A stretch of DNA of 54,927 bases from a virus (lineage: Duplodnaviria > Caudoviricetes), in the IMG/VR virus record IMGVR_UViG_3300020042_012365, positions 1-54,927 of that record. One strand, written 5' to 3'. Made by a program: the position numbers and the translations under genes. Shown here in pieces: positions 3,382 to 45,276 of the stretch; positions within the stretch are counted from its first letter, which is position 1; each line of letters starts with the position of its first letter. The notes beneath the pieces were generated by a model, which ran no database searches, was not told where the DNA came from, and was given only the letters and a program-made list of their open reading frames with translations.

Positions 3382-3555
3382 ATGGATAAAATAACTAAAC
3401 AAGAATTTGAAACGTTTCGTGAAACGTGGAAATCTGAGTGGTACGAACATTGGAGACTCTTGGATATTGACTTTGAAACTTATATGTTAATGAAAGGATT
3501 AACTAAACAAGAATATAAAAATTTAAATAACGACGAATTATGGAAAAACATGTAG
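3382..3555 (+). CDS. Small hypothetical protein (57 aa, MDKITKQEF...), not in ORF track
   Basis: Translated by hand; fills the gap and overlaps the queC start. Confidence 0.55.
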   Translation: MDKITKQEFETFRETWKSEWYEHWRLLDIDFETYMLMKGLTKQEYKNLNNDELWKNM

Positions 3556-4418
3556 TGATTAGCCTTTCAGGTGGAATGGATAGTAGCACTCTTTTACTTA
3601 GATGCTTAAAAGAATATCAAAATGTTGTTTGTATCTCTTTTGACTATGGCCAAAAACATCGAATTGAGCTTGAACGTGCTCAATTATTAGTAGATTATAT
3701 TAATGGACAATTTATTGTAGATAAAGAATCTAAAACAGTAGAATACCCCCATTATATAAAATATCGCCAAATCCAATTAAATGGATTAGCTGATTTATTA
3801 GATTCAGCTTTGGTAACAGGTGGAGCAGAAGTACCTGAAGGACATTATGCTGAAGAAAACATGAAAGCAACAGTTGTTCCAAATAGAAACAAAATATTTG
3901 CTTCAATTACACAAGCAGTTGCACTTTCAGTAGCAAATAAAACAGGTGAGCAATGTGATATTGCAATGGGAATCCACAGCGGAGACCACGCGATCTATTT
4001 GGATTGTAGGCAAGAATTTAGAGACGCTGACGATCATGCTTTCAGAATTGGTAATTGGGGATCTGAAAAAGTAGGTTACTTTACACCATATCTTGAAGGT
4101 GATAAATTTACCATTTTACAAGATGGAGAAGTATTATGTAGTGAATTAGGACTTGATTTTGATGAAGTATATAAACGTACAAACACTTCATATAAACCAA
4201 TTTACCATAACTTTTTATACACAAATGATGAAGATGAAATAGTTGATGGTTCTGATTGGTTTTCTGATTTTAAATCAGCAAGTTCCGTGGAGCGAGTAGA
4301 AGCATTTATTAAATTAGGAAGAAAAGATCCTGTAGAATATGCTGATGAAACAGGTCCTGTAAATTGGGAACACGTAGTAAATGAAGTAACAAAAGTATTA
4401 GAAAACCACAACAATTAA
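3540..4418 (+). CDS. queC: 7-cyano-7-deazaguanine synthase
   Basis: SGGMDS PP-loop, FDYGQKH, VPNRN, GDHAIYLDCR. Confidence 0.9.
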   Translation: MEKHVVISLSGGMDSSTLLLRCLKEYQNVVCISFDYGQKHRIELERAQLLVDYINGQFIVDKESKTVEYPHYIKYRQIQLNGLADLLDSALVTGGAEVPEGHYAEENMKATVVPNRNKIFASITQAVALSVANKTGEQCDIAMGIHSGDHAIYLDCRQEFRDADDHAFRIGNWGSEKVGYFTPYLEGDKFTILQDGEVLCSELGLDFDEVYKRTNTSYKPIYHNFLYTNDEDEIVDGSDWFSDFKSASSVERVEAFIKLGRKDPVEYADETGPVNWEHVVNEVTKVLENHNN

Positions 4419-4421: not shown

Positions 4422-4898
4422 ATGGGAAAATATATTAGCACAAAATTATTTGAAAATTATTCAGTAGCACTTAGACAACATAAAGCATCACATTCACATT
4501 GTGAATTATTACATGGATATGCTTTAAAATTTAAAGTATGGTTTGCATCAAATGAACCAATTGAAGAAAACCAATTAGATGATATGAATTGGATCGTTGA
4601 TTACGGAGGGTTTAAAGATGCACCTAAAGGTAATGGTTTAAAATCTTGGATGAACCATATGTGGGATCATACCTTACTAATTGAAAAAGATGATCCATAT
4701 TTAGATTTCTTTGAATCTGCAGCAATGGAAGGTCTATGTGCACTTCGAGTAATGGATAAAATGGGAGCTGAATCATGTGCAAAACTTGTATTTGATAAAT
4801 TCAATGAAGTTTTATCTAAAACAGATGGTGGGCGATGCAAATGTATTAAAGTAGAATGTTTTGAAAACGACAATAACTCCAGCATATATGAACAATAA
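4422..4898 (+). CDS. queD: 6-carboxy-5,6,7,8-tetrahydropterin synthase
   Basis: HC..LHGY, DYG, WDH and C-terminal E..N motifs. Confidence 0.85.
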   Translation: MGKYISTKLFENYSVALRQHKASHSHCELLHGYALKFKVWFASNEPIEENQLDDMNWIVDYGGFKDAPKGNGLKSWMNHMWDHTLLIEKDDPYLDFFESAAMEGLCALRVMDKMGAESCAKLVFDKFNEVLSKTDGGRCKCIKVECFENDNNSSIYEQ

Positions 4899-4955
4899 TT
4901 ATTATACGACAACCACCACTTTTGGTGACATTAAATTTACATATATTTTAGTAAA

Positions 4956-5204
4956 ATGAAAGAAATACTATATTTTTCAAGTACGTGGTGTGGACCATGT
5001 AAGAATTTTAAACCTATTATGGAAAGCGTAAGCAATTCTATCCCTGTTCAATTTGTAGACGTTGATCAGAATCCAACATTAGCGGCCCAATACAATATTA
5101 GAAGCATACCTACTTTAGTATTTTTAAAGGATGGACAAGAAATTAATAAAAAACCAGGAGTTTTAAGTGAATCACAAGTAAAAGAAATATGGAATCAAAT
5201 TTAG
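4956..5204 (+). CDS. trxA: Thioredoxin
   Basis: WCGPC active site and IPT cis-Pro motif. Confidence 0.9.
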   Translation: MKEILYFSSTWCGPCKNFKPIMESVSNSIPVQFVDVDQNPTLAAQYNIRSIPTLVFLKDGQEINKKPGVLSESQVKEIWNQI

Positions 5205-5971
5205 GAAGAATAGAAGATTATAATAAAACATTACCTGTACTTGAATTGTATAGATGTGTTCAAAGCGAGGGTTCTCGTTTTGGAAGACCTACTATAGCAG
5301 TTCGTACAACAGGTTGTACTCACAGATGTTATTTTAGAGAAGGTGGATGGTGCGACAGCTGGTACACAAGTATACACCCAGAAAAAGGAACATTCAATTT
5401 CAATGATATTATCAAAATATATGATGAAAATCCTCATATAAAAGAAATGATGCTTACCGGAGGAAGTCCGAGTATGCACCCAAAATTAGTAAACGAATTA
5501 ACACATTTCGCAAATGAAAGAGGAATCCTTATTACCATTGAAACTGAAGGTAGCCATTTTGTACCTACAGACTATCCTTTGGGTCTTATATCTCTCAGTC
5601 CAAAGTTTAATAATTCTGTACCCGTACTTGATGCTGTTACGCCTCAAGGAGCGATTGTGGGACAAAAAATGATTGATCAACACAATAAATTTAGATTAAA
5701 TGTTGAGGTAATGAGACAAATGATCGATTTCCATACGGATTATCATTATAAACCAGTTTGGGATGGTACAGAAAAGAATTTAGATGAAATAGAAGCATTT
5801 AGATTATCATTAAATATCCCAAAAGATAAAACATACATTATGCCCGCAGGAGATACTAGAGAAACATTAATTGAAATGTATCCACTTGTATTTGATATGT
5901 GTGCTGAAAAGGGTTACAATATGACAGGAAGAGATCATATTATCGCATTTGATACAAAAAGAGGAGTATAA
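5189..5971 (+). CDS. queE: 7-carboxy-7-deazaguanine synthase (radical SAM)
   Basis: QSEG..G.P...VR..GC, LTGG.P, ETEG, SLSPK motifs. Confidence 0.88.
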   Translation: MESNLGRIEDYNKTLPVLELYRCVQSEGSRFGRPTIAVRTTGCTHRCYFREGGWCDSWYTSIHPEKGTFNFNDIIKIYDENPHIKEMMLTGGSPSMHPKLVNELTHFANERGILITIETEGSHFVPTDYPLGLISLSPKFNNSVPVLDAVTPQGAIVGQKMIDQHNKFRLNVEVMRQMIDFHTDYHYKPVWDGTEKNLDEIEAFRLSLNIPKDKTYIMPAGDTRETLIEMYPLVFDMCAEKGYNMTGRDHIIAFDTKRGV

Positions 5972-6015: not shown

Positions 6016-9000
6016 ATGGCACTTACATTGAATAAAATAGGCGTAACAACAGGTAATACTGTTGAGGCGTATCATGTAACTCAATCTATTGATGCTTTTA
6101 CAGGAGAAGAAGCATACGATATTACACTTTCAGGTTCACTAACAGTAACAGGAAGTGTTATTGTAACATCAGGTTTAACTGGATCTTTACAAGGTACGGC
6201 TTCATATGCTACAAATGTATTAAGTTCAAGCTTTGCTTCAACTGCATCATTTTTTAGTGGAACGGTTGTAAGTGCTTCATATGCACTAACAGCTTCATTT
6301 GCATTAAATGCTGGAGGAGGAGCAGCTTTTCCATTCACCGGTAGTGCTTTAATTACTGGTTCATTAGGAGTAACGGGTTCATTAAGTAATGGAAATGGAA
6401 ACATTGCTTCTGGAATCTTTTCCCACGCAGAAGGTAGTACTACAACTTCAACCGGCATCTATTCACACGCAGAAGGCAATAGTACAACATCAACCGGAAA
6501 CTATTCACATGCAGAAGGTAATGGAACAACATCAACAGGAATTGCTTCACACGCAGAAGGCGAACTTACAATTTCAACCGGAGATGCTTCACACGCAGAA
6601 GGTGAAACTACAATATCATCAGGAAGTTATTCACACGCAGAAGGAGCTAGTACAATTTCAACAGGAATGGCTTCACACGCAGAAGGAGCTCTTACTGATG
6701 CCATTGGAGACTATTCACACGCAGAAGGTGCTAGTACAACAGCAACCGGATTTGGGTCACACGCAGAAGGACAATCAACTCTATCATTAGGATTATATTC
6801 CCACGCAGAAGGTGAAAGTACAACTGCAACCGGAAATTGGTCACACGCTGAAGGGCTAGGAACTGTAGCATCGGGATCTTACCAACACGTACAAGGACAA
6901 TACAATATATCATCATCCGCTCAAGCTGCATTTATTCATGGTAATGGTACAAGCACATCAGCAAGATCAAATTTAATTTTTGCATCAGGCTCTCAAGTAC
7001 AAGTAACAGGAAGTGTTATTGTAACTAGTGGTTTTACCGGTTCATTGCTAGGAACGGCAACAACAGCATCATCCACTCCAAATGCTATAATAACAGCATC
7101 TGTATCATCAAATACAATCACATTTACTAAAGGTAATGGTACAACATTTCCCATCACTGTTAATACCGGAAGTGGTGGTGGGGGTGGAAGCGCATTTCCA
7201 TTCACAGGATCCGCAGGAATCTCAGGAAGTATTTTAATAAACTCTCAACTAACATTAGGTGTTGGTAGTGGTGCTTTTTTAGGAGGACCAACACATAATG
7301 TTGCTTTAGGTAAAAATAATCTACAATCAAATACTTCAGGAAGCTTTAACGTTGCTTTAGGTTATGGTGCCTTAGCTTCAAATACTACAGGATACAATAA
7401 CGTTGCTTTAGGTCAAGCTTTAGGTTCAAATACAACAGGAAAATATAACGTTGCTTTAGGTGCTGCTTTAGGTTCAAATACAACAGGAAACTATAACGTT
7501 GCTTTAGGTAGAACTGCTTTAAACGCTAATACAACAGGACTATATAACGTTGCTTTAAGTAAACATGCTTTATATTCAAATACAATAGGAACCGCTAACA
7601 TTGCTTTAGGTCTAACTGCTTTATATTCCAATACAACAGGAAACTCTAACGTTGCTTTAGGTGATAGCGCTTTATATTCAAATACTTCAGGAAGTAACAA
7701 CGTTGCTTTAGGTTCAAGTGCTTTACGTTATAATACAACAGGAAATCAAAACGTTGCTTTAGGTACACAAGCTCTACTTTCAAATACTTCCGGAAACAAT
7801 AACGTTGCTTTAGGTCTAAGTGCTTTATATTCAAATACAACAGGACTATATAACGTTGCTTTAGGTTCAAATGCTTTATATTATAATACAACAGGAACCG
7901 CTAACGTTGCTTTAGGTATAAATGCTTTAAATTACAATACAATAGGAACCGCTAACGTTGCTTTAGGTCCAAGTGCTTTACGTTACAATACAACAGGAAA
8001 CTATAACGTTGCTTTAGGTCGAAAGGCTTTATATTCAAATACAACAGGAACCAATAACGTTGCTTTAGGTCTAAGTGCTTTATATTCAAATACAACAGGA
8101 AATCGAAACGTTGCTCAAGGTTATCAAGCTTTATTTTTAAATACAATAGGAAATAATAACATAGCTCAAGGTTATAGAGCATTATATTCAAATACTTCAG
8201 GAAGCTATAACGTTGCTCAAGGTTATAGAGCATTATATTCAAATACAGAAGGAACCGATAACATAGCTCAAGGTTACAAATCATTATATTACAATACAAC
8301 AGGAAATTATAACGTTGCTTTAGGTAGAAATGCTTTACAATCCAATACAACAGGAAACCAAAACGTTGCTTTAGGTAATAGTGCTTTACGTCAAAATACA
8401 ACAGGAACCAATAACGTTGCTTTGGGTATAAATGCTTTAAATTCAAATACTTCAGGAAGTAACAACGTTGCTTTAGGTCAAAGTGCTTTACGTGACAATA
8501 CAACAGGAACCGCTAACGTTGCTTTAGGTCCAAGTGCTTTAACTTCAAATACAACAGGAGGTGAAAATATTGCTTTAGGTCCAAATGCTTTATATTCAAA
8601 TACTTCCGGAACCAATAACGTTGCTTTAGGATCAGGTTCTTTATCTTCAAATACATCAGGATACAATAACGTTGCTTTAGGTTCACTTGCTTTACGTTCA
8701 AATACAACAGGAAATAATAATATAGCTCAAGGTACAAATGCTTTACAACAAAATACAACAGGAAACTATAACGTTGCTTTAGGTCCAAGTGCTTTACAAT
8801 ATAATACAATAGGAAACTATAACGTTGCTTTAGGTAGAAATACTTTAACTTCAAATACAACAGGAAACCATAATGTTGCTCAAGGTTACAAAGCTTTAAA
8901 TTCAAATACAACAGGATACAACAACGTTGCTTTAGGTCCAAGGGCTTTACGATCAAATACAGAAGGAACCGATAACATAGCTCAAGGTTATAGAGCATTA

Positions 9001-11931
9001 TATTCCAATACAATAGGAAGCTATAACGTTGCTCAAGGTTATAGAGCATTATTTTCAAATACTTCAGGAAGTTTTAACGTTGCTTTAGGTAGAGATGCTT
9101 TATATTACAATACAACAGGAAACTCCAACGTTGCTTTAGGCCAAAGTGCTTTACAATCAAATACAACAGGATACAATAACGTTGCTTTAGGTAGACAAGC
9201 TTTACAATACAATACAACAGGAAATTATAACGTTGCTTTAGGTAGAAGGGCTTTATATTCAAATACAACAGGAACCAATAATGTTGCTCAAGGTTACAAA
9301 GCTTTAAATTCAAATACAACAGGACAAAATAACGTTGCTCAAGGTTATAGAGCATTATTTTCAAATACTTCAGGAAGCAACAATATTGCTCAAGGTTACA
9401 AATCATTATATTACAATACAACAGGAAACTATAACGTTGCTTTAGGTAGAAGTGCTTTATATTCAAATACAACAGGAAACAATAACGTTGCTTTAGGTAG
9501 AGAAGCTTTACGTGACAATACAACAGGAAACTATAACGTTGCTTTAGGTCAAAGTTCTTTACGTGACAATACAACAGGAATTAATAACACTGCTTTAGGT
9601 AGAGAAGCTTTACGTTACAATACAATAGGACAAAATAACGTTGCTCAAGGTTATAGAGCATTATTTTCAAATACTTCAGGAAACGCTAACGTTGCTTTAG
9701 GTAGAGAAGCTTTACGTTACAATACAATAGGAAGCTATAACGTTGCTCAAGGTTATAGAGCATTATTTTCAAATACTTCAGGAAGCAATAATGTTGCTTT
9801 AGGTGCAAGTGCTTTACGTTCTAATACAGTAGGAAACTTTAACGTTGCTTTAGGCCCAGGTGCTTTACAATTAAATACAACAGGAACCAAAAACGTTGCT
9901 TTAGGACAATATTCTTTAAATCAAAATACAACAGGAAATAATAATATAGCTCAAGGTTACAAAGCATTATATTCAAATACAACAGGATACAATAACGTTG
10001 CTTTAGGTCCACTTGCTTTACGTAATAATACTTCAGGAAGTAACAACGTTGCTTTAGGTATAAGTGCTTTACAATACAATACAACAGGAAACTTTAACGT
10101 TGCTTTAGGTCCAAATGCTTTACGTTACAATACAATAGGAATTAATAACACTGCTTTAGGATATCGTGCTTTACAATACAATACAACAGGATACAATAAC
10201 ACTGCTTTAGGAGGAAATGCTTTACAATACAATACAACAGGAACCAATAACGTTGCTTTAGGATATCGTGCTTTACGTTACAATACAACAGGAAATAATA
10301 ATATAGCTCAAGGTTACAATGCTTTACGTTACAATACAACAGGACAAAATAACGTTGCTTTAGGTCCAAATGCTTTACGTTACAATACAACAGGATACAA
10401 CAACGTTGCTTTAGGTAACAGTGCTTTACGTGACAATACAACAGCAAACTCTAACGTTGCTTTAGGGTATCGTGCTTTACGTCAAAATACAACAGGAACC
10501 TATAACGTTGCTTTAGGTAGACAAGCTTTATATTATAATACAATAGGAAATAATAATATAGCTCAAGGTTACAATGCTTTACGTTATAATACAACAGGAA
10601 ACTATAACGTTGCTTTAGGTAGCAGTGCTTTATATTCAAATACTTCAGGAAGCAATAATGTTGCTTTAGGTAGAGAAGCTTTATTTTCAAATACAACAGG
10701 AAACTATAACGTTGCTTTAGGTCAAAGTTCTTTACGTGACAATACAACAGGAAACTATAACGTTGCTTTAGGTAGAGAAGCTTTATTTTCAAATACAACA
10801 GGAACCAATAACGTTGCTTTAGGTCTAAGTGCTTTATTATCCAATACAACAGGAAACTATAACGTTGCTTTAGGATCAGGTTCTTTACAATCAAATACAA
10901 CAGGAAACACTAACATTGCTTTAGGTAAAAATGCTTTACATAATAATACAACAGGAAACGCTAACGTTGCTTTAACCCAAACTGCTTTATATAATAATAC
11001 AACAGGATTCAGTAACATTGCTTTAGGTGATAGTGCTTTAAAATACAATACAACAGGATACCTTAACGTTGCTTTAGGTGCAAGTTCTTTACGTAACAAT
11101 ACAACAGGAAAAAGCAACATAGCTCAAGGAGGCAGTGCTTTATTTTACAATACAACAGGAAACTATAACGTTGCTTTAGGTCTAAATGCTTTAAAATCCA
11201 ATACAGAAGGAACCGATAACATAGCCCAAGGTTACAGAGCATTATATTCAAATACAACAGGAAGTCACAACATTGCTTTAGGTAATGGTGCCTTAAATTA
11301 CAATACTTCAGGAAGTTTTAACGTTGCTTTAGGTAAAGGTGCTTTATTTTTAAATACAGAAGGAAACGATAATATTGTTTTAGGTAGAGATGCTTTACGT
11401 TACAGCACTACAGGATTTAATAACGTTGCTTTAGGTCCAAGTTCTTTAGGTTCTAATACAACAGGATTTCAAAACGTTGCTTTAGGTATAAATGCTTTAG
11501 GTTCTAATACAACAGGAGTAAGTAATATTGGAATAGGGGCCGCAGCTTTAGTAAGTACCACAACAGGAACCGGAAATATAGCTCTAGGAAGTGCTTTACG
11601 TTACAATACAACAGGAAATCAAAATTTAGCTTTAGGAAATTTAGCAATGTATTATCATGCTTCAGGAAATAACAACATTGCTATAGGATATAAAGCTTTA
11701 ATGCCCAATACATCAGGAAGTAATAATACAGCAATAGGTATAGATACATTATCAGGTAATTTTTCAACATCTGTAATTCTAGGACGAGGAGCTACAGCAA
11801 CAGCAGATAATCAATTCGTTATAGGTGCTACCTCATATAATGCCGGATCTGTTGCTACAGAATCCAATTCCTCCACTAGAGTATGGAATGTTATAATAAA
11901 TGGAGTTGCTAGAAAAATATTATTAGCCTAA
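6016..11931 (+). CDS. Giant tail fibre/adhesin-like protein with YadA-head-like 14-aa beta-roll repeats
   Basis: SGSL.VTGS repeats, about 11 SHAEG repeats, then roughly 100 NTTG..NVALG..AL.. repeats. Confidence 0.75.
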   Translation: MALTLNKIGVTTGNTVEAYHVTQSIDAFTGEEAYDITLSGSLTVTGSVIVTSGLTGSLQGTASYATNVLSSSFASTASFFSGTVVSASYALTASFALNAGGGAAFPFTGSALITGSLGVTGSLSNGNGNIASGIFSHAEGSTTTSTGIYSHAEGNSTTSTGNYSHAEGNGTTSTGIASHAEGELTISTGDASHAEGETTISSGSYSHAEGASTISTGMASHAEGALTDAIGDYSHAEGASTTATGFGSHAEGQSTLSLGLYSHAEGESTTATGNWSHAEGLGTVASGSYQHVQGQYNISSSAQAAFIHGNGTSTSARSNLIFASGSQVQVTGSVIVTSGFTGSLLGTATTASSTPNAIITASVSSNTITFTKGNGTTFPITVNTGSGGGGGSAFPFTGSAGISGSILINSQLTLGVGSGAFLGGPTHNVALGKNNLQSNTSGSFNVALGYGALASNTTGYNNVALGQALGSNTTGKYNVALGAALGSNTTGNYNVALGRTALNANTTGLYNVALSKHALYSNTIGTANIALGLTALYSNTTGNSNVALGDSALYSNTSGSNNVALGSSALRYNTTGNQNVALGTQALLSNTSGNNNVALGLSALYSNTTGLYNVALGSNALYYNTTGTANVALGINALNYNTIGTANVALGPSALRYNTTGNYNVALGRKALYSNTTGTNNVALGLSALYSNTTGNRNVAQGYQALFLNTIGNNNIAQGYRALYSNTSGSYNVAQGYRALYSNTEGTDNIAQGYKSLYYNTTGNYNVALGRNALQSNTTGNQNVALGNSALRQNTTGTNNVALGINALNSNTSGSNNVALGQSALRDNTTGTANVALGPSALTSNTTGGENIALGPNALYSNTSGTNNVALGSGSLSSNTSGYNNVALGSLALRSNTTGNNNIAQGTNALQQNTTGNYNVALGPSALQYNTIGNYNVALGRNTLTSNTTGNHNVAQGYKALNSNTTGYNNVALGPRALRSNTEGTDNIAQGYRALYSNTIGSYNVAQGYRALFSNTSGSFNVALGRDALYYNTTGNSNVALGQSALQSNTTGYNNVALGRQALQYNTTGNYNVALGRRALYSNTTGTNNVAQGYKALNSNTTGQNNVAQGYRALFSNTSGSNNIAQGYKSLYYNTTGNYNVALGRSALYSNTTGNNNVALGREALRDNTTGNYNVALGQSSLRDNTTGINNTALGREALRYNTIGQNNVAQGYRALFSNTSGNANVALGREALRYNTIGSYNVAQGYRALFSNTSGSNNVALGASALRSNTVGNFNVALGPGALQLNTTGTKNVALGQYSLNQNTTGNNNIAQGYKALYSNTTGYNNVALGPLALRNNTSGSNNVALGISALQYNTTGNFNVALGPNALRYNTIGINNTALGYRALQYNTTGYNNTALGGNALQYNTTGTNNVALGYRALRYNTTGNNNIAQGYNALRYNTTGQNNVALGPNALRYNTTGYNNVALGNSALRDNTTANSNVALGYRALRQNTTGTYNVALGRQALYYNTIGNNNIAQGYNALRYNTTGNYNVALGSSALYSNTSGSNNVALGREALFSNTTGNYNVALGQSSLRDNTTGNYNVALGREALFSNTTGTNNVALGLSALLSNTTGNYNVALGSGSLQSNTTGNTNIALGKNALHNNTTGNANVALTQTALYNNTTGFSNIALGDSALKYNTTGYLNVALGASSLRNNTTGKSNIAQGGSALFYNTTGNYNVALGLNALKSNTEGTDNIAQGYRALYSNTTGSHNIALGNGALNYNTSGSFNVALGKGALFLNTEGNDNIVLGRDALRYSTTGFNNVALGPSSLGSNTTGFQNVALGINALGSNTTGVSNIGIGAAALVSTTTGTGNIALGSALRYNTTGNQNLALGNLAMYYHASGNNNIAIGYKALMPNTSGSNNTAIGIDTLSGNFSTSVILGRGATATADNQFVIGATSYNAGSVATESNSSTRVWNVIINGVARKILLA
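6415..6860 (+). repeat. 42-bp period repeats encoding SHAEG units
   Basis: tcacacgcagaagg recurs every 42 bp. Confidence 0.85.
7294..11740 (+). repeat. 42-bp period coding tandem array (about 100 units)
   Basis: aatacaacagga...aacgttgctttagg repeated throughout; unit count estimated as length/42. Confidence 0.95.
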
Positions 11932-11964
11932 TCTTTAAACTTAAAATAAATAAATAAACAAATA

Positions 11965-11988
11965 AAACAAACAAACAAACAAACAAAC
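11965..11988 (+). repeat. (AAAC)6 microsatellite in translation leader
   Basis: Directly visible just upstream of ATG 11992. Confidence 0.85.
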
Positions 11989-11991
11989 AAA

Positions 11992-12228
11992 ATGGAAACA
12001 AAAACACCAAACCCAACACAATCAATTAGCGCAGCTTTTGATTCAGTAAATTTAATCAACAAACTTATCACTGAAACCGCAGACGATAAGAAAAAAGGAA
12101 ATGTTGAAAGAAATGTTAAACATTTAGAAGTAATGTTAACAAAAGAATTTTTTACAGAAGCTTTAACAGTACAACAAAAATCAGATATTGATGCTTGTAT
12201 TGTAGCTGGAAATGCATATACAGTTTAA
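11992..12228 (+). CDS. Small helical protein following the fibre (possible fibre chaperone)
   Basis: 78 aa; position directly after the fibre gene. Confidence 0.55.
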   Translation: METKTPNPTQSISAAFDSVNLINKLITETADDKKKGNVERNVKHLEVMLTKEFFTEALTVQQKSDIDACIVAGNAYTV

Positions 12229-12243
12229 TATTTGCAAATAAAA

Positions 12244-12273
12244 TTTGGAGACTCAAAAGAGTCTCCATATGTT
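12244..12273 (+). promoter_or_regulatory. Promoter-like TTGGAG-N17-TATGTT with perfect hairpin GGAGACTC-AAAA-GAGTCTCC
   Basis: 8-bp inverted repeat; spacing identical to other promoters; precedes sulfotransferase. Confidence 0.55.
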
Positions 12274-12297
12274 TTAAATATATAAAAGTTATAAAAA

Positions 12298-13113
12298 ATG
12301 ATTAAAAAAGTATTTTACAATTCATCTCTGCCAAGAGCAGGATCAACTTTGCTTCAAAATGTATTGATGCAAAACCCAGAAATTTATTCAACTCCAACTT
12401 CAGGTGTAATCGAATTTCTATTACAAGCCCGTACTTTATATACAACGGGAGATGCTTTTAAAGCACAAGATTCAAAGGATATGGAAAAAGGATTCCAAGG
12501 ATTTTGCAAAGCAGGACTATATGGTTTTTTTGATTCTATAACAGATCGACCATATGTAATTGATAAAAGTAGAGCATGGGTAGGCAATTTTCGCTTTGCC
12601 AACTTTATAGAACCAAATCCTAAAGTAATTGTTATGGTTCGTGATTTGAGAAGTATATTTGCTTCTATGGAAAAAAATTATAGAAAAAACCCCCACAAGG
12701 ATCCACTTATTGTAAACGGAGCACAACTCCAAAACATGACAGCGGATTCACGTTTAAAACATTTTTCTGTTTCCCCACCAATTGGACCATCTCTAGAATG
12801 GTTATATGATGCTATTCAACAAGGATACGATGAGCATTTTCTATTTATTCGCTTTGAGGATTTTACAAAAGACCCAGAAACAGAAATTAAACGTATCTAT
12901 CACTATTTAGATATCCCATATTTCAAACACGATTTTGAAAATATAGAACAACTAACACATGAAAATGATGTTATACATGGTATATTTGGAGACCACGAAA
13001 TACACCCCGTAATCAAACCACTAATAGAAGATTATACTAGTATATTAGGTTTTCAGAATTGTGATATAATCAAGCAAAACTATCAGTGGTTCTTTGACAA
13101 ATTCAATTACTAG
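12298..13113 (+). CDS. PAPS-dependent sulfotransferase
   Basis: SLPRAGSTLL 5-prime-PSB loop, DKSR, MVRD...S 3-prime-PB motif, RFEDF..DP. Confidence 0.85.
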   Translation: MIKKVFYNSSLPRAGSTLLQNVLMQNPEIYSTPTSGVIEFLLQARTLYTTGDAFKAQDSKDMEKGFQGFCKAGLYGFFDSITDRPYVIDKSRAWVGNFRFANFIEPNPKVIVMVRDLRSIFASMEKNYRKNPHKDPLIVNGAQLQNMTADSRLKHFSVSPPIGPSLEWLYDAIQQGYDEHFLFIRFEDFTKDPETEIKRIYHYLDIPYFKHDFENIEQLTHENDVIHGIFGDHEIHPVIKPLIEDYTSILGFQNCDIIKQNYQWFFDKFNY

Positions 13114-13116
13114 AAT

Positions 13117-13545
13117 ATGATATATTGGTTTACAGGACAACCAGGACATGGTAAAACTGTCTTGGCAAAAACATTAAATGAAAAATATTTTAAAAATAAA
13201 GCATTCCATGTTGATGGAGATGATTTGCGGGAAATATTTGATAATAAGGACTATAGCGAAGCGGGTAGAAGAAAAAATATTGAACTGGCACAACATATAT
13301 CCCACTTTTTAAACAATAAAGGAGAAAATGTAATTGTATCTTTAGTTTCCCCATATAAAGATCAACGAGATATGTTCAAAGAAAAAATAGGAGATAATAT
13401 TAAGGAAATCTATGTTCATACCACGGAAATCCGCGGCAGAGAAAATTTTCACGTAGCAGATTATCAACCACCAAGTGAGCGTTTTATAGATGCTAATACT
13501 ACCGATTGCACACCAGAAGAAACATTAAATACAATAAAGTTATGA
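13117..13545 (+). CDS. cysC: Adenylylsulfate (APS) kinase
   Basis: WFTGQPGHGKT P-loop, DGDDLR, DYSEAGR, SLVSPY, YQPP. Confidence 0.85.
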   Translation: MIYWFTGQPGHGKTVLAKTLNEKYFKNKAFHVDGDDLREIFDNKDYSEAGRRKNIELAQHISHFLNNKGENVIVSLVSPYKDQRDMFKEKIGDNIKEIYVHTTEIRGRENFHVADYQPPSERFIDANTTDCTPEETLNTIKL

Positions 13546-13943
13546 GTTGGAGTAAAAAAATACACGTAGAATCATCTATCCCACCACGTGAAGGACAATA
13601 TGCAATGTTTATTGGTAGATGGCAACCTCTACACGTTGGACATAAAGCACTATTTCAAGGTGTATTAGATGAAGGTAAAAACGTTTTAATTTGTATTAGA
13701 GATGGAGCGGTAAATGAGAAAAATCCATTTACACCTCAAGAAGTACTTCTCAATATTGCAAACGAAATGAAAGACCAAGTTGAACAAGGAAGAGTAAAAA
13801 TAATGGTAATACCAGATATATGTTCTGTTGAATTTGGTCGTGGAGTAGGATACGATATAATCGAACACATTCCCCCAACAGAAATTGGAGAAATTTCAGC
13901 AACAAAGGTTAGAGAACAATTAAGAAAAGATGGTAAGTTATAA
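13542..13943 (+). CDS. Small HxGH nucleotidyltransferase (cytidyltransferase-like; candidate ATP sulfurylase)
   Basis: GRWQPLHVGH, NPF, GRGVGY, ISATKVR; ATGA overlap with cysC. Confidence 0.75.
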   Translation: MSWSKKIHVESSIPPREGQYAMFIGRWQPLHVGHKALFQGVLDEGKNVLICIRDGAVNEKNPFTPQEVLLNIANEMKDQVEQGRVKIMVIPDICSVEFGRGVGYDIIEHIPPTEIGEISATKVREQLRKDGKL

Positions 13944-14136
13944 AAGACACATTGCAAAAACTATCAGCTATCGTATTTTAAGTACATTAATTGGATTTAT
14001 TATTATGTTTATTATTAGTGGTTCATTTAAAATAGGAGCAGCATTTGGTATAATAGAATTATTATATAAACCTTTACAATATTATATTCATGAACGAATA
14101 TGGTATAAATGGATTAAATTTGGGTTAAAAAAATAA
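13930..14136 (+). CDS. DUF2061-like small membrane protein
   Basis: R..AKT.SYR...T ... YY.HER.W pattern. Confidence 0.75.
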   Translation: MVSYKRHIAKTISYRILSTLIGFIIMFIISGSFKIGAAFGIIELLYKPLQYYIHERIWYKWIKFGLKK

Positions 14137-14140
14137 AATA

Positions 14141-14170
14141 TTTGGAGGAGCGAAAGCTCTTTCGTATATT
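14141..14170 (+). promoter_or_regulatory. Promoter TTGGAG-N17-TATATT with GAGC-GAAA-GCTC hairpin in spacer
   Basis: Exact TTCGTATATT at 14161. Confidence 0.7.
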
Positions 14171-14187
14171 TTATCAAAATTAAAGTT

Positions 14188-14478
14188 ATGGGAAGAGGAA
14201 GACCTTCGAAAAAAATCGCACCAAAAGTATCATTTGTCCGAACAGGTAGACCTGTATCTGAAAAAATAGTAGTTTGTGTTGTTTATAAAAAACCAACAGG
14301 TAAAAAACACTACCTAAACACATACAAAAACCTTGAACTAGATTCCATTATATCTAACAGAAAACATATACCTGCTATTCCAGATGACTATGAAATCGTT
14401 GATATTGGAGTAGGAAAGTCATATATTGAGAGATATAAAAAACAATATAAAATAGATAAAATAACAATACAAGATTAA
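14188..14478 (+). CDS. Basic protein with AT-hook-like motifs
   Basis: GRGRPSKK and RTGRP. Confidence 0.6.
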   Translation: MGRGRPSKKIAPKVSFVRTGRPVSEKIVVCVVYKKPTGKKHYLNTYKNLELDSIISNRKHIPAIPDDYEIVDIGVGKSYIERYKKQYKIDKITIQD

Positions 14479-14487
14479 TTTAAATAT

Positions 14488-15186
14488 ATGAGTGAAAATA
14501 AACGTAGAAAAAATCACACTGATTTAGAGTGTGTACAAGTAGGTTTTGCAAATGGAGTAGCCCCTGGTTTCCCACTTACAGAACAAGAAAAATGGAAAAT
14601 GGTTAATGAAGCAGAAGAAGCTTATGGTCAATTTTTAACTGCATTAGGTGTAGATTGGAAAAATGATCCAAATTCATCAGAAACACCTCGAAGGATAGCT
14701 AAAAAATATGTATTTGAACAATGGAAAGGACGATATGACTTACCCCCAACAATAACATCATTTCCTAGTGATGGATATGACGGACTTGTTACTGAATGTA
14801 ATATACCATTAACCAGTATGTGTAGCCACCATCACGAAAGTATTCTAGGAAGAGTCCATATTTCATATATACCTGGAGAAGGTGGTAGAGTAATTGGTTT
14901 ATCTAAATTAAATCGCATAGTTGAACATTTTGGTCGTAGAGGAGCAATCCAAGAACAGCTTACAATGGCTATCTATAAAGCTGTAGATAAAGTATGTGAA
15001 GGTAATATTGGAGTTGCTGTGCAAATTGTAGCTTCACACTCCTGTGTATCATGTCGTGGCACAGGTCATCGAGGTGCATCTATGATTACCACTAAACTCT
15101 CAGGAAATTTCTTTGGGTTACCGGTAGTTAGAAATGAATTTTTTGATGCTATTAAAAGTGCTAATGCTCTAAAAGATACCCATTAA
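14488..15186 (+). CDS. folE: GTP cyclohydrolase I
   Basis: TPRRIAK, SMCSHH, GLSKL.R, QEQLT, HSC..CRG. Confidence 0.92.
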   Translation: MSENKRRKNHTDLECVQVGFANGVAPGFPLTEQEKWKMVNEAEEAYGQFLTALGVDWKNDPNSSETPRRIAKKYVFEQWKGRYDLPPTITSFPSDGYDGLVTECNIPLTSMCSHHHESILGRVHISYIPGEGGRVIGLSKLNRIVEHFGRRGAIQEQLTMAIYKAVDKVCEGNIGVAVQIVASHSCVSCRGTGHRGASMITTKLSGNFFGLPVVRNEFFDAIKSANALKDTH

Positions 15187-15245: not shown

Positions 15246-16022
15246 ATGAGTATTGGTATTTACAAAATCACTTCCCCATCAAATAAAGTTTATATAGGTC
15301 AATCTGTTAATATTGAACGAAGATTTAAACATTATAAAAATTTAAAAGAAATAAAGGGACAAAAGAAAATATATTTTTCTATAAAAAAACATGGATATGA
15401 AACTCATTTATTTGAAATACTAGAAGAATGTAGTATAGATGAATTAAATTTTAGAGAAGAATATTGGATTAGTTTATATAATAGTTGTAATAACGGATTA
15501 AACATAAGTGAGGGAGGAGGAAGTTTTGGAAAATTTAATAAAGGTAAAAAAAGACCATCTAAAGTTAAACTTAAAATTTCCCAAACTAAACAAAATAATC
15601 CAAGAAAAACAACAAAAGAAATGATTCAAACATACCGTGATGCTTCCCCAACAAAAAAAGAAATATTCCAATATGATCTAGAAGGCAATTTTATTAAAAA
15701 ATACCCAAGTATAAATGAAGCCTCCAGACAGCTAGAAATTAGAAATGATGGAATCTCAGCATGCCTTAGAGGAAAACAAAAATCAGCATATAGTTTCCAA
15801 TGGTTCTATACTTTTCAAAATTACGTTCATCCAATAACTGAATCATCCAAACCCCCACAATGGAAAGGTAATAGGAATTTAGAATTAGATAAACATATAA
15901 TTGAAATTTTAAAAATGTATGACGAAGGTAAAAATATAACTTATATAGCTAAAAAATTTAATGTTCATCGAGATGCAATAAAACAAAGAATTAATGAAAA
16001 CAAAAACCCTTGGAATTCATAA
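15246..16022 (+). CDS. Free-standing GIY-YIG homing endonuclease with NUMOD-like domains and C-terminal HTH
   Basis: GIYKIT...VYIGQS, R...H, E..WI, GLN...GG; QYDLEG..I..Y.SI.EA NUMOD1-like motif. Confidence 0.88.
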   Translation: MSIGIYKITSPSNKVYIGQSVNIERRFKHYKNLKEIKGQKKIYFSIKKHGYETHLFEILEECSIDELNFREEYWISLYNSCNNGLNISEGGGSFGKFNKGKKRPSKVKLKISQTKQNNPRKTTKEMIQTYRDASPTKKEIFQYDLEGNFIKKYPSINEASRQLEIRNDGISACLRGKQKSAYSFQWFYTFQNYVHPITESSKPPQWKGNRNLELDKHIIEILKMYDEGKNITYIAKKFNVHRDAIKQRINENKNPWNS

Positions 16023-21086: not shown

Positions 21087-23023
<1,937 letters not shown>

Positions 23024-23024
<1 letters not shown>

Positions 23025-29672: not shown

Positions 29673-31112
29673 ATGAATTCAAGTTTTAAGTACCTTCCTC
29701 AAAATGAGAGGAAAAAAATCATGCTAATTTGCGATGACCTTAGAGTACATTCAGGAGTAGCAACAGTAGCAAGAGAGTTAGTATTAAACACAGCTCAACA
29801 TTTCAATTGGGTAAACATTGCAGGAGCAATTAGTCATCCTGAAAAAGGTAAACGTTTTGATATCTCAGCAGATACAAACACAAACACAGGTTTAACAGAT
29901 GCTTCTGTATTTTTATATCCTGTGGATGGATATGGTGATGCTGATTTAATTAGACAATTGATTGATATGGAAAAACCAGATGCAATCATGTTAATCACAG
30001 ATCCAAGATATTTTGAATGGTTGTTTATGATCGAAAATGAAATCCGTAAAACAACCCCAATCATTTACTTGAACATTTGGGATGATTATCCAGCTCCACT
30101 TTACAACAAATCCTATTACGAATCATGTGATGCTTTACTAGCTATCTCAAAACAAACACAATTGATCAATGAATTGGTTTTAGATGAAAAACGAGGTAAA
30201 AAGATTATTGAATATGTTCCCCATGGTTTAAACCACGAACTATATTATCCTATTGAAAAAGAGAATGAATTAAAAGAACTAGCAGATTTTAAATCTAATT
30301 TATTTGGAGGTAAAGAGAAAGACTTTGTTGTATTCTTTAATTCAAGAAACATCAGACGTAAACAAATCCCAGATACAATGTTTGCATTTAAAATTTTCTT
30401 AGATACTTTACCTAAGGAAAAAGCAGAAAAATGTGCTTTACTAATGCATACTGAAATGGTTTCAGATCATGGAACTGATTTAGATGCAGTACGCAAAATG
30501 TTATTTACTGATTATCCAAATGCGGTATATTTTTCTCTTAATAAGTTAGATAATAAACAATTAAATATGATGTATAATATAGCAGATGCTCAAATATTAT
30601 TAACATCAAATGAAGGTTGGGGTCTGTCATTGACAGAAGCTATACTAGCAGGAACAGTTATTATTGGAAACGTAACAGGTGGTATGCAAGATCAAATGGG
30701 ATTTGAAGATGAATTTGGAAATTGGTACACACCAACACCTGAAATTCCTTCAAACCATACAGGAAAATATAAAAACCATGGTTGTTGGGCATTCCCAGTG
30801 TATCCAACTAATCGATCAATACAAGGTTCACCTAAAACTCCATTTATTTGGGATGATAGATGTAATGCTGAAGATGCAGCCGTTCAAATCGGTAAAGTAT
30901 ATGATTTAGATAGAACAATGAGAAAAGAACTTGGTAAAACAGGTAGAAGTTGGGCTGTAGATGAAGTAGGTTTTACCGGAGAATCTATGGGAGCCCGAGC
31001 AATTAATGCGATAGATCAATTATTTAACACGTGGACTCCGCGAGAAAGATATGAGTTAATCAACGTTAATGATGTTAAAGAAAATATAATTAAACACAAA
31101 TTTGTATATTAA
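29673..31112 (+). CDS. GT-B glycosyltransferase (GT4-like)
   Basis: SGVA, PHG, RN..RK, EGWGLSLTEA. Confidence 0.85.
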   Translation: MNSSFKYLPQNERKKIMLICDDLRVHSGVATVARELVLNTAQHFNWVNIAGAISHPEKGKRFDISADTNTNTGLTDASVFLYPVDGYGDADLIRQLIDMEKPDAIMLITDPRYFEWLFMIENEIRKTTPIIYLNIWDDYPAPLYNKSYYESCDALLAISKQTQLINELVLDEKRGKKIIEYVPHGLNHELYYPIEKENELKELADFKSNLFGGKEKDFVVFFNSRNIRRKQIPDTMFAFKIFLDTLPKEKAEKCALLMHTEMVSDHGTDLDAVRKMLFTDYPNAVYFSLNKLDNKQLNMMYNIADAQILLTSNEGWGLSLTEAILAGTVIIGNVTGGMQDQMGFEDEFGNWYTPTPEIPSNHTGKYKNHGCWAFPVYPTNRSIQGSPKTPFIWDDRCNAEDAAVQIGKVYDLDRTMRKELGKTGRSWAVDEVGFTGESMGARAINAIDQLFNTWTPRERYELINVNDVKENIIKHKFVY

Positions 31113-31121
31113 AATAAAGTT

Positions 31122-32414
31122 ATGAGTAAACCAACTTTTGTAATAAGCTGCCCAATTAATACCTACTCAGGATATGGAGCACGCTCTAGAGATATCGTTA
31201 AAGCGATTATTGAATTAGATAAATATGATGTAAAAATCATGCCTCAACGATGGGGTTCAACACCACAAGGATTTATTAAAGATAACCCTGAATGGGAATT
31301 TTTAACAAAACACTTGCTAAATTCACCTCAATTACCATCACAACCAGAAATTTGGATGCAAATTACAGTTCCAAATGAATTCCAACCAGTAGGAAAATAT
31401 AACATTGGATGTACAGCTGGAATTGAAACCACTATTGCCCCTGCAGAATGGATTGAAGGTTGTCAAAGAATGAATTTAATTTTAGGTTCATCTGAACATA
31501 CTATTGATGTTTTAAAGAGTAGTAAATTCGAAAAACGCGATCAACAAACAAACCAAACCGTAGGACATATTGAATGGACAAGAGATAGTGAAGTAATATT
31601 TGAAGGTGCTAATATAGATGTATATAAACCAGTTAAATCAACCTTTGATTTATCTAATATAAAGGAAGAATTTGCTTATTTGTTTGTAGGACATTGGATG
31701 CAAGGACAATTAGGTGAGGATAGAAAAAATGTAGGCTTGTTAATTAAAGCGTTCTTTGAAACGTTTAAAAATAAAAGTAAAAAACCTGCACTTATCTTAA
31801 AAACTTCAACTGTAGGATCTTCTTACATGGATAGAGATGAATTAATTAGACGCATTAAAGCAATTAAAGATACAGTTAAATCAACTAATTTACCAAATGT
31901 ATATTTATTACATGGTGAGTTTACTGATATTGAAATGAATGAAATATATAATCATTCAAAAGTTAAAGCGATGATTAATTTAACTAAAGGAGAAGGATTT
32001 GGCAGACCGTTACTTGAATTCTCACTTGTAAACAAACCAATCATCACTACAAATTGGAGTGGACATATAGATTACTTAAACCCAGAATTCGTTACATTAC
32101 TTCAAGGAACAATGGCAAAAGTACACCCTTCAGCAGCAAACAATATGTTGTTAGCTGACGCAGAATGGTTTAATGTAGATCATGGTCATGTAGGTCATTA
32201 TTTAAAAGATGTATTTGAAAACTATAGAGGATATGCTGAAAATGCTAAGCGTCAAGGTTTTCAAAGCAGAACTAAATTTTCATTTGATGCAATGAAAGAA
32301 AAATTGGATAAAGTATTCACTAAAAGAATACCTGAGTTTCCAAAACAGATTCAATTACAGTTACCTAAATTAAACAAAATTGAATTACCAAAACTTAAAA
32401 AAATAGAAGCATAA
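31122..32414 (+). CDS. GT-B glycosyltransferase (GT4-like)
   Basis: SGYG, RKN, EGFGRPLLE. Confidence 0.85.
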   Translation: MSKPTFVISCPINTYSGYGARSRDIVKAIIELDKYDVKIMPQRWGSTPQGFIKDNPEWEFLTKHLLNSPQLPSQPEIWMQITVPNEFQPVGKYNIGCTAGIETTIAPAEWIEGCQRMNLILGSSEHTIDVLKSSKFEKRDQQTNQTVGHIEWTRDSEVIFEGANIDVYKPVKSTFDLSNIKEEFAYLFVGHWMQGQLGEDRKNVGLLIKAFFETFKNKSKKPALILKTSTVGSSYMDRDELIRRIKAIKDTVKSTNLPNVYLLHGEFTDIEMNEIYNHSKVKAMINLTKGEGFGRPLLEFSLVNKPIITTNWSGHIDYLNPEFVTLLQGTMAKVHPSAANNMLLADAEWFNVDHGHVGHYLKDVFENYRGYAENAKRQGFQSRTKFSFDAMKEKLDKVFTKRIPEFPKQIQLQLPKLNKIELPKLKKIEA

Positions 32415-32878
32415 TGCAAAACGAAGAAATAATTAACTGCCCTAAATCGGGAGGTGATCTTTGTTATAAAACACAAATCACACCTGAAATTGCTACCTAC
32501 CTAAGTTTATCATGTGGATTTTGGACTAATTCATTTATGAAAGAAGACCAAGAATTTTACATGCAACAAATAGAAACTCTACCTGAATTGTATAAAGATT
32601 TAGCTTGGACAGATCCTGAAACAGAATTGATTTGGTTGCCAAATACAATCAACATTGAAGACAAAGGTATGATATTTGCTAATGGATCAAATACCCAAAA
32701 CTGGAGATGGGCAGCAGTTAAATCAATTGAAATCCCTAAAAAAGACAGAAAAAAACACCCAATCCCAGGCAAACCAGGACAATTTATGAAATATAGAATG
32801 GATATGAAAAACATGAAATCGTTTGAAGAGCGTGATTATATAGAAGCTCTTTCATATATTGGAATATTACCTGAATAA
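32414..32878 (+). CDS. Hypothetical protein (Cys-containing N-terminus)
   Basis: ORF track; overlaps the upstream gene. Confidence 0.6.
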   Translation: MQNEEIINCPKSGGDLCYKTQITPEIATYLSLSCGFWTNSFMKEDQEFYMQQIETLPELYKDLAWTDPETELIWLPNTINIEDKGMIFANGSNTQNWRWAAVKSIEIPKKDRKKHPIPGKPGQFMKYRMDMKNMKSFEERDYIEALSYIGILPE

Positions 32879-32884
32879 AATAAT

Positions 32885-33508
32885 ATGAAAATAAGTTATG
32901 CAATTACAGTTTGTAATGAATTTTATGAAATTCAACGTTTAGTACACTTTTTGCTTCGAACTAAACGCCCACAAGACAACATTGTAATTTTATTTGATGA
33001 AGCAAATGGTGACCCTGAAGTTGAAAGCTTCCTACGCTCCCATTCTAAAAATGGAGAGTTTAGTTGGCATAAAGGAAAATTCGAAAGACATTTCGCAGAC
33101 TGGAAAAACAAATTGACCAGTCTGTGCAGTGGTGATTACATTTTCCAAATCGATGCTGATGAAGTACCTAATGAAAATCTAATAGCAGTTTTACCTGATG
33201 TATTAGCGGAAAATGAAGAAATTGATGTTTTCCTTATTCCACGAATAAACACAGTAGAAGGTTTAACTCCCGAACACATTACAAAATGGGGATGGAAAGT
33301 AAATGATGCTGGATGGGTAAATTGGCCCGACATGCAATGGCGTTTATGGAAAAATAAACCAGAAATTCAATGGGTAAACAAAGTACATGAGCGTTTAGAT
33401 GGTTTTAAAACATATACCGCTATGCCTGATGTAGAGTATTTTGCTTTATACCATCCAAAAACAATTCAAAAACAAGAAAAACAAAACAATTATTACGATA
33501 CATTATGA
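32885..33508 (+). CDS. GT2 glycosyltransferase
   Basis: ISYAI...NE, IDADE, VHE. Confidence 0.85.
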   Translation: MKISYAITVCNEFYEIQRLVHFLLRTKRPQDNIVILFDEANGDPEVESFLRSHSKNGEFSWHKGKFERHFADWKNKLTSLCSGDYIFQIDADEVPNENLIAVLPDVLAENEEIDVFLIPRINTVEGLTPEHITKWGWKVNDAGWVNWPDMQWRLWKNKPEIQWVNKVHERLDGFKTYTAMPDVEYFALYHPKTIQKQEKQNNYYDTL

Positions 33509-37844: not shown

Positions 37845-37847
37845 AAA

Positions 37848-38756: not shown

Positions 38757-38767
38757 GAAATAATAAT

Positions 38768-39547: not shown

Positions 39548-39568
39548 AAATAATAAATCAAATATAAT

Positions 39569-40210: not shown

Positions 40211-40216
40211 CCCCCT

Positions 40217-45217: not shown

Positions 45218-45276
45218 CGCAAAAAACATTGGATGGAGTTTCCTTGCCGCAAGGTGGGTTTTATAAGTTCAAATAC

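Follow-up and report, generated by a model that had tools for sequence, protein, structure and literature searches.

How could a phage that encodes a sulfotransferase and an adenosine 5'-phosphosulfate (APS) kinase obtain its APS? The question is raised by a four-gene block in the IMG/VR virus record IMGVR_UViG_3300020042_012365 (Duplodnaviria; Caudoviricetes). The window analysed here is this whole viral record of 54,927 bases, for which CheckV gave a completeness of about 34% of a genome. The block consists of the following open reading frames (ORFs):

12298..13113, + strand: sulfotransferase (ST) of the type that uses 3'-phosphoadenosine 5'-phosphosulfate (PAPS), 271 amino acids (PF13469 1.4e-17; PF00685 7e-12)
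13117..13545, + strand: shortened APS kinase (APSK), 142 amino acids (PF01583 1.7e-17)
13542..13943, + strand: HxGH nucleotidyltransferase (NT), 133 amino acids, candidate minimal ATP sulfurylase (PF01467 1e-4)
13930..14136, + strand: DUF2061 small membrane protein, 68 amino acids (PF09834 1.3e-16)

The gap between ST and APSK is 3 bases, and the next two junctions are overlaps of 4 bases (APSK/NT) and 14 bases (NT/DUF2061). The length of 133 amino acids for NT follows from an ATG start common to homologues such as P0001. With four same-strand frames, this spacing (+3/-4/-14) and Pfam matches above cut-off for every product, the genes are real and translationally coupled, as an earlier note on this sequence had described them. 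That note also saw no CysD or Sat. Indeed PF01747 (Sat) and PF01507 (CysD/CysH) gave no match across the record, and because the record is about 34% of a genome this absence holds for the record and not for the whole phage.

We propose that NT is probably a minimal ATP sulfurylase. It would run forward within the phage cassette and, next to the APS reductase genes aprMBA of SAR11 bacteria, probably in the reverse direction. Three considerations from sequence and gene context lead to this proposal. APS is the metabolite common to APS kinase, APS reductase and, via PAPS, the sulfotransferase; among APS enzymes, only ATP sulfurylase is lacking from these genomes and from the phage; and the chemistry of HxGH enzymes, which transfer a nucleotidyl group from a nucleoside triphosphate (NTP) with pyrophosphate (PPi) as the leaving group, is ATP sulfurylase chemistry.

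Proposed sulfation pathway and its enzymes

The block would form a self-contained sulfation cassette. In the first step NT, a single-domain HxGH adenylyltransferase of NadM-like descent, would catalyze ATP + sulfate <-> APS + PPi. The shortened APS kinase would then phosphorylate the 3'-OH of APS to give PAPS and, by analogy with animal PAPS synthase in which APS kinase and ATP sulfurylase are fused, would pull the unfavourable first step. In the third step ST would transfer the sulfate to an acceptor, perhaps a glycan. A glycan is a reasonable guess because a block of glycosyltransferase, methyltransferase and epimerase genes is present at ~29.6-42.5 kb; nothing points to DNA as the sulfation target. 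The genes of that run (29673-42549) encode GT2, GT7-like and phrog_2170 glycosyltransferases, FkbM + Methyltransf_23, DUF6165 and a nucleotide-sugar epimerase. In the fourth step the two-helix membrane protein DUF2061 might hold the enzymes at the membrane or contribute to sulfate supply.

ST and APSK were assigned by family models and motifs. ST scored 65.1 bits with PF13469 (cut-off 27) and 45.7 bits with PF00685 (cut-off 22), and it matched phrog_27463 at 1.8e-38 and, weakly, a NoeE-like protein at 1.1e-4. PRAGST, a stretch close to its N-terminus, and RDLRSIFAS are similar to the 5'-PSB and 3'-PB motifs of PAPS binding. APSK scored 64.3 bits with PF01583 (cut-off 21.1) over profile positions 4-110 of 152, so that the lid, at positions 111-152, was unmatched. 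With TIGR00455 it reached 67.1 bits, under the equivalog cut-off of 138.7. The nearest solved structure is the APS kinase 8a8h (6.3e-12), and APSK was also aligned to 5cb6. The motifs GQPxxGK (P-loop), DGDxxR, GRxxN, SP and RGRE are invariant in 22 relatives. By its Pfam match and these motifs the 142-residue protein is best read as a shortened APS kinase, and its sequence suggests the corresponding activity. For human PAPS synthase, one study describes the DGD aspartates as essential for APS kinase activity (PMC11697783).

The DUF2061 protein scored 61.2 bits with PF09834 (cut-off 23.1). The earlier note had suggested that it may assist in sulfation. Its linkage to the cassette held, as a DUF2061 gene follows NT in 75 of 80 related viral loci; in cells, DUF2061 was found in only one of five NT-bearing genomes. 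At one of two sites in SAR11 the DUF2061 gene has as neighbours a HIT gene and one for a sulfate permease of the SulP family (1.4e-54). The best 120 of 169 longer DUF2061 proteins contain DUF2061 alone, with no enzyme fusion. In published work, a DUF2061 gene is placed inside a Mesorhizobium nod locus together with nodH, nodP and nodQ (bioRxiv 10.1101/2022.04.26.489235), and in Caulobacter and Shewanella DUF2061 genes are listed among those that respond to iron or Fur (PMC3751524, PMC12442407). We can only guess at membrane tethering or sulfate supply as its function.

Linkage of NT to APS kinase, sulfotransferases and APS reductase

The comparison of viral gene neighbourhoods covered 80 related loci in which NT is 61-79% identical to the phage protein. 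The APSK gene lies directly upstream of NT in 78 of them; in the remaining two the contig stops too soon (<320 bases upstream). An ST gene of the phage's type is found upstream in 60 loci, and all four genes occur together in 59, every time on one strand. Since spacing and inserted genes vary among these loci, the conserved order reflects more than the inheritance of an unchanged block.

NT is very common: at E <= 0.001 it is matched by 5,461 proteins of similar length and by 1,085 clusters at 50% identity. Forty-four cluster representatives reach a length of 190 amino acids. Of these, 17 are APSK-NT fusions, 11 are NT-APSK fusions, one is an NT-DUF2061 fusion (P0192) and one is a tandem NT; the remaining 14 showed no partner like those of the phage block. 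The fusion of APSK and NT thus arose in both orders. Several cellular fusions contain a full canonical APS kinase (L094, 2e-55; L096, 1.7e-44; L135, 8.4e-51; also P0211). The co-occurrence with cysC that the earlier note had proposed as a check is therefore found both as adjacency in 78/80 viral loci and as fusion in 28/44 long representatives.

The fused form also corresponds to phrog_10255 ('kinase'), which is present in Xylella, Stenotrophomonas, Xanthomonas and Clavibacter phages. In Xylella phage Sano (L001) a fused kinase-NT gene belongs to the early-gene block (sites 797-1474 and 4587-5324), together with a MazG-like gene and one that carries the annotation cysteine dioxygenase; the annotation of the vicinity includes no sulfotransferase. 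NT forms of ~320 amino acids (P0122-P0138) were considered as a further fusion and rejected, as their N-terminal extra part was judged by eye to be an HNH homing-endonuclease-like ORF read into NT. Such an ORF is inserted before NT in relatives P0121-P0138 and gives rise to the apparent ~320-residue proteins.

In cells the family would serve where APS is made or consumed without Sat or CysDN. The closest cellular copies (64% identity) are on contigs of Crocinitomicaceae metagenome-assembled genomes (MAGs) and may themselves be viral. Elsewhere the partners are again enzymes of sulfate activation and transfer. NT follows a canonical CysC (202-residue frame, 225.7 bits) in a Marinimicrobia genome, and in an Omnitrophota MAG two PF13469 sulfotransferase genes lie directly upstream of an NT-APSK fusion. 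A Marinimicrobia single amplified genome (SAG) has a PF19798 sulfotransferase gene (9.8e-51) ~2 kb from an APSK/NT pair; ORFs of 236-237 amino acids occupy the same place in four more loci and were matched to the sulfotransferase ORF by size and position alone.

Known ATP sulfurylases were searched for in ten NT-bearing genomes from several phyla, most of them incomplete MAGs or SAGs in which a single absence carries little weight. Sat was found in one (Omnitrophota G158), and convincing CysD-like genes were found in three (Scalindua G004, Omnitrophota G158 and Acidobacteriota G160); G157 gave a fragmentary CysD match at a contig end. Neither Sat nor CysD was detected in six of the ten, among them the complete genome of a Pelagibacter and a Planctomycetota MAG of 5.7 Mb. 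For comparison, Sat is present in 35 of 81 sampled Planctomycetota. The Marinimicrobia, with 3 positives in 151, offer too few for a phylum-wide phyletic test. The complete Pelagibacter genome (G001) encodes NT, two APS-kinase-like proteins, a sulfotransferase and AprA, and no Sat or CysD was found in it. The second, fuller kinase gene of G001 (L166 4068-4562; 82.4 bits, profile positions 3-151) lies among nucleotidyltransferase-like and methyltransferase-like ORFs, away from the NT pair.

About 60 of the best 80 cellular NT loci belong to Pelagibacteraceae, and the link to APS reductase emerged in this group. Across a sample of 121 Pelagibacterales (SAR11) genomes of at least 80% completeness, NT was present in 99, AprA in 100 and Sat in 5. 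Both NT and AprA occur in 96 genomes (95 without G322, which is unpublished), NT only in three (G329, G348, G349), AprA only in four (G321, G337, G356, G359) and neither in 18, which corresponds to a Fisher test value of 7e-15, uncorrected for relatedness. NT is found in 92 of the 96 genomes that are AprA-positive and Sat-negative.

By coordinates, NT lies <=1.5 kb from aprA in 21 SAR11 genomes, and three of these loci were read through; aprM and aprB were named in them by position and sequence character. In G352 one strand carries, in order, NT, a 263-residue membrane ORF where aprM would be expected, a Cys-rich ORF of 156 residues at the aprB position, aprA, a 116-residue ORF and a TauE/SafE sulfite exporter gene (7.5e-47), and no kinase gene is adjacent to NT. 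In G264 and G294 a kinase-NT pair is convergent on aprM-aprB-aprA-ORF116. The conserved 116-residue ORF directly 3' of aprA (L193 4519-4869; L194 7743-8093; L195 2263-2613; three SAR11 genomes) has no Pfam match. In Allochromatium vinosum, sat is immediately upstream of aprMBA and co-transcribed with it (PMC3779200); by analogy, NT in G352 occupies the place of sat.

This arrangement bears on a known gap. SAR11 genomes are described as lacking sat and cysDN while keeping aprBA, cysC and cysQ (PMC5069961), with sat in only one strain (PMC3448164), and gaining ATP from sulfite via AprBA requires the sat step (PMC5864207). In SAR11, NT would be the partner of APS reductase and would convert APS + PPi to ATP + sulfate. 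The cysC co-occurrence, the linkage in other phyla to sulfotransferases of different families and the SAR11 APS reductase link support, at the level of genomic inference, the mini ATP sulfurylase that the earlier note had proposed, and they support extending the idea beyond this phage. The evidence leans towards the wider view that NT represents a third class of ATP sulfurylase, of ~130 amino acids, single-domain and NadM-derived, which would be the missing Sat of most SAR11 and which phages would have packaged as a host-independent sulfate-to-sulfoconjugate cassette. In SAR11 it would complete, with AprMBA, the path from sulfite through APS to sulfate + ATP, and would also supply APS kinase.

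Sequence and fold of NT, and other possible functions

NT matched PF01467 at 22.9 bits (gathering score 21) and has the motif HVGH. Its conserved motifs are GRWQPLHVGH, IRD...KNPFT, PDI.SV.FGRGVGY and ISATKVR. Residues R26, H31, H34, G99, R100, G103, S119 and R124 are invariant in 56 relatives. Two arginines, R53 and R100, are both invariant and specific to the family: R53 stands where NadM has Gly, and R100 is conserved in 18 of 19 cellular copies checked. An AlphaFold (AF2) model built with the 56 relatives as input has a pLDDT of 92 and a single domain. In the model, residues 92-105 form a 14-residue loop with the GRGVGY motif, at a place where NadM has a helix-strand-helix segment that is missing from NT and that we take to be the binding site for nicotinamide mononucleotide (NMN). 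The stretch from PDI to ISxT is a 27-residue loop in NT and measures 40-50 residues in NadM enzymes. Because this middle segment of NadM is shortened to a loop, the model suggests that only a small second substrate would fit. Some family members retain NadM-like C-terminal helices.

Fold comparison did not single out one function. Foldseek placed an archaeal NMN adenylyltransferase (NMNAT) on top with a TM score of about 0.6. VIA-align gave Z scores of 10.1 for the NMNAT 1f9a, 10.0 for a phosphopantetheine adenylyltransferase (PPAT), 9.4 and 9.2 for NadM and 7.7 for the Thermus ATP sulfurylase 1v47 (114 residues, 20% identity). Neither method showed a preference for ATP sulfurylase over NMNAT or PPAT. 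With the PF01467 match, Z scores of 8-10 for NMNAT, PPAT and NadR put NT in the HxGH superfamily with its Rossmann-like fold; the modelled fold sets the superfamily and not the substrate. A predicted complex of APSK and NT scored 0.00 against a mark of 0.32 and was counted neither for nor against the proposal.

Profile comparison with Sat gave a hint. When the NT profile was compared with 26 catalytic domains of Sat in a local, permissive hhalign run (mact 0.05), the probability reached 76.7% (E 2e-5); HxGH fell on HRAH, GRGVG on the GRDHAGVG loop of Sat and ISAT on ISGT. In Allochromatium Sat, the GRD loop touches the ribose and its Ala backbone NH touches sulfate, while the QxRN loop gives the remaining sulfate contacts and binds the alpha-phosphate (PMC3779200). 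The equivalence of GRG and GRD is a hint only, because the global run gave a probability of just 24%.

Several further observations weigh, as that global value does, against an ATP sulfurylase. By sequence and fold the nearest relatives of NT are NMN adenylyltransferases; thus the earlier note's placement of NT in the HxGH nucleotidyltransferase superfamily stood, and its kinship turned out closer to NadM-type enzymes than to Sat. With the Sat model PF01747, NT reached no more than 13 bits (E 0.07; cut-off 24.3). With a single Sat sequence the NT profile aligned in the ISxT region alone, at 46% probability. The sulfate-binding QxRN loop of Sat was not found in NT, which has GRWQP, the NadM form, and a gap in the profile alignment. 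Among phages, no ST of the phage's type was found in the Sano-type phages (Xylella, Stenotrophomonas and relatives) that carry the APSK-NT fusion. Among cells, four Sat-bearing SAR11 genomes retain NT, and intact NT is retained in Scalindua G004, which has CysD and CysNC, and in Omnitrophota G158, which has Sat and a CysD-like gene. In Acidobacteriota G160 (locus L135) cysDN-like genes adjoin an NT-APSK fusion, so that NT as an ATP sulfurylase would be redundant there. This copy has GHDVGY in place of GRGVGY, the sole such case among 19 copies checked, which may reflect decay of a redundant domain in a single instance. The co-distribution of NT and AprA in SAR11 may be due partly to clade structure, the genomes examined outside SAR11 are mostly incomplete MAGs or SAGs, and the assignment of NT as a whole rests on genomic context.

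The alternative that survives best is that NT performs another APS- or PAPS-centred adenylyl transfer as an accessory to APS kinase or APS reductase. It might, for instance, convert APS + phosphate to ADP + sulfate, or act in the salvage or editing of APS, PAPS or 3'-phosphoadenosine 5'-phosphate (PAP). The genomic context fixes the metabolite APS and not the reaction, and the coexistence of NT with CysDN or Sat in three of ten genomes, with adjacent cysDN-like genes in L135, fits such a role. The HIT-family gene between SulP and DUF2061 in SAR11 indicates that other APS-handling chemistries may be present. We nevertheless consider this function unlikely: the phage cassette would then have no source of APS, yet it is kept as a unit in 59 of 80 loci; six of ten NT-bearing genomes have neither Sat nor CysD; HxGH enzymes use an NTP with PPi leaving; and the position of NT upstream of aprMBA is that of sat.

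A non-catalytic or regulatory role as a partner of APS kinase, like that of the inactive ATP-sulfurylase-like domain of the Thiobacillus denitrificans APS kinase, has a solved precedent (3cr8) among the fold matches of NT. Fusion alone is no proof of catalysis, and L135 has an altered GHD loop. Against such a role stand the invariance of the catalytic residues H31, H34, S119 and R124, and of R26 and R100, in 56 diverse relatives, with R100 also kept in nearly all cellular copies checked, and the SAR11 G352 locus, where NT adjoins aprMBA without a neighbouring kinase. We regard a purely structural or regulatory NT as very improbable.

Could NT be an adenylyltransferase for NMN or nicotinic acid mononucleotide (NaMN) in NAD salvage, with incidental sulfation neighbours? 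NadM, NadR and archaeal NMNAT match it best at the level of family models, of sequence and of fold, phages are known to carry NAD salvage genes, and NadM-type matches occur in Roseobacter phages. The family scores, however, are far under cut-off, with 39.2 bits against 127 for the best NCBIfam match (NadM NMNAT NF002243, 5.2e-10) and 33.8 bits against 181.2 for TIGR01527. The alignment with the NMNAT 1ej2 (3.1e-5) stops at residue 93, the segment for NMN is missing, and adjacency or fusion to APS kinase is near universal. In SAR11, NadD-type matches were obtained in all five genomes checked (three with NT, two without), and 22 of the 121 genomes lack NT, whose distribution follows that of AprA. 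As NadD is present in those five regardless of NT and some genomes do without NT, NT is not the NAD enzyme of SAR11, nor its CoA enzyme, and we give NAD salvage very little credence in general.

Equally improbable is that kinase and NT make some other 3'-phospho-adenylylated compound for the ST-like protein, in parallel to PPAT and dephospho-CoA kinase: CoA synthesis does parallel PAPS synthesis chemically, the PPAT fold match (Z 10.0) is level with NMNAT, some sources name NT homologues 'phosphopantetheine adenylyltransferase' and the phage kinase is under the CysC equivalog cut-off, yet the kinase retains the APS-kinase signature (DGDxxR, GRxxN, SP), many fusions contain a full canonical APS kinase, and the genes linked to NT encode sulfotransferases, APS reductase and the TauE sulfite exporter.

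Layout of the record, significance and known systems

Essentially all long ORFs of the record are on the + strand. The sulfation block is flanked by the following features:

11992..12228, + strand: p78, 78-residue ORF between the fibre-like ORF and the sulfotransferase gene (ORF call)
12246..12267, + strand: terminator-like hairpin 5' of the block (stem of 9 pairs, 5 of them G-C; loop of 4; T-rich tail)
14143..14164, + strand: terminator-like hairpin 3' of the block (stem of 9 pairs, 4 of them G-C; loop of 4; T-rich tail)

The 3' hairpin starts 7 bases past the DUF2061 stop codon. Two statements on the 5' side had to be revised. The promoter-like element that had been assigned to the block at 12244 is the first hairpin, because sigma-70-like promoter matches are no commoner than in shuffled sequence (20 in 11700-14700 against 16.4 +/- 2.9). 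The block also does not follow directly after the fibre, since the conserved p78 intervenes. No match to p78 was found in Pfam, NCBIfam or PHROG. Its homologues occur in 12 of the 80 viral loci, ten of them between ST and APSK and two upstream of ST as here, so p78 travels with the sulfation block in part of the lineage. A DNA-level search of the four-gene block against phage records gave no match, and no isolate has a DNA polymerase more than 31% identical to the one encoded here.

The fibre-like ORF (6016-11931, 1971 amino acids) has many short NTTGxxNVALGxxAL repeats, which also result in long spurious ORFs on the opposite strand. Genes for a QueC-like protein (3540-4418, 3.9e-36), a QueE-like protein (5189-5971, 1.7e-45) and GTP cyclohydrolase I (FolE; 14488-15186, 1.9e-39, just 3' of the sulfation block) suggest 7-deazaguanine synthesis, probably for DNA modification. 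Downstream of FolE an ORF at 15246-16022 was judged by eye to be GIY-YIG-like. The phage further encodes a GroEL-like chaperonin (21381-23024; phrog_5725, 1.7e-144). ARAGORN found tRNA-Glu(TTC) and tRNA-Trp(CCA) within 45146-45351 and a tRNA-Asn with the unusual anticodon ATT at 53337-53411.

To our knowledge, two types of sulfate-activating enzymes are known, Sat and CysDN. If the proposed function of NT is correct, a third, very small type would alter the inference of sulfur pathways from genome data. Any genome now judged to lack the means of making or using APS would have to be reassessed. That includes the genomes of SAR11, which are among the most abundant sea bacteria; their APS reductase would gain its missing partner and sulfite oxidation an ATP-yielding end. 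A virus could then bring a complete sulfation pathway, which would suggest a part in infection for sulfated glycans or for other products that carry sulfate. For enzymatic sulfation, an ATP sulfurylase of ~130 residues and an APS kinase of ~140 residues would make a compact PAPS-regeneration module.

In the literature searched, with supplements and subscription journals outside its scope, we found no account of the NT family as an ATP sulfurylase or of its link to aprMBA, and nothing pertinent on DUF2061, on a phage sulfotransferase with adenylylsulfate kinase or on a non-canonical ATP sulfurylase. The pelagimyophage paper PMC7029224 has no mention of sulfotransferase, adenylylsulfate, cytidyl, PAPS or cysC. 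A survey of viral sulfur genes reports cysC in a few viral genomes and no viral sulfate adenylyltransferase (bioRxiv 10.1101/2020.08.24.253096).

Among known systems, the closest in sequence are NadM and archaeal NMNAT (TIGR01527, NF002243; 1f9a, 1ej2), which have GRxQPxHxGH, NPFT and ISxTxxR in common with NT. They differ in a segment from strand 3 to ISxT that is about twice as long, whereas NT carries the family-specific invariant GRxVG(Y/W) and has APS enzymes, not NAD enzymes, as genomic partners. Sat (PF01747; Allochromatium vinosum Sat, Thermus 1v47) belongs to the same HxxH/HxGH superfamily with a Rossmann-like fold. It shares the HxGH and ISxTxxR motifs, its GRD loop may equal the Gly-Arg loop of NT, and it is likewise found fused to APS kinase (2gks, 1x6v). 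Sat has ~390 residues against 133 for NT, in which, besides the QxRN loop, no counterpart of the N-terminal PUA-like domain or the GxxKxxD mobile loop was found, either in the protein or in its alignment. The NodP/NodQ/NodH and CysDN-CysC systems resemble the phage block in that a dedicated PAPS supply is encoded beside a sulfotransferase, but their sulfurylase is the GTPase-coupled CysD/CysN, with a fold unrelated to NT.

Animal PAPS synthase activates sulfate in two steps with a kinase and an HxGH adenylyltransferase, as proposed for the phage pair. One study places APS kinase N-terminal to ATP sulfurylase and describes the DGD and HNGH motifs as essential (PMC11697783). The adenylyltransferase half of the animal enzyme is of a different, much larger family, and the phage genes are separate with a 4-base overlap. 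The APSK-first order is that of the phage operon and of 17 fusions, while 11 fusions have the opposite order.

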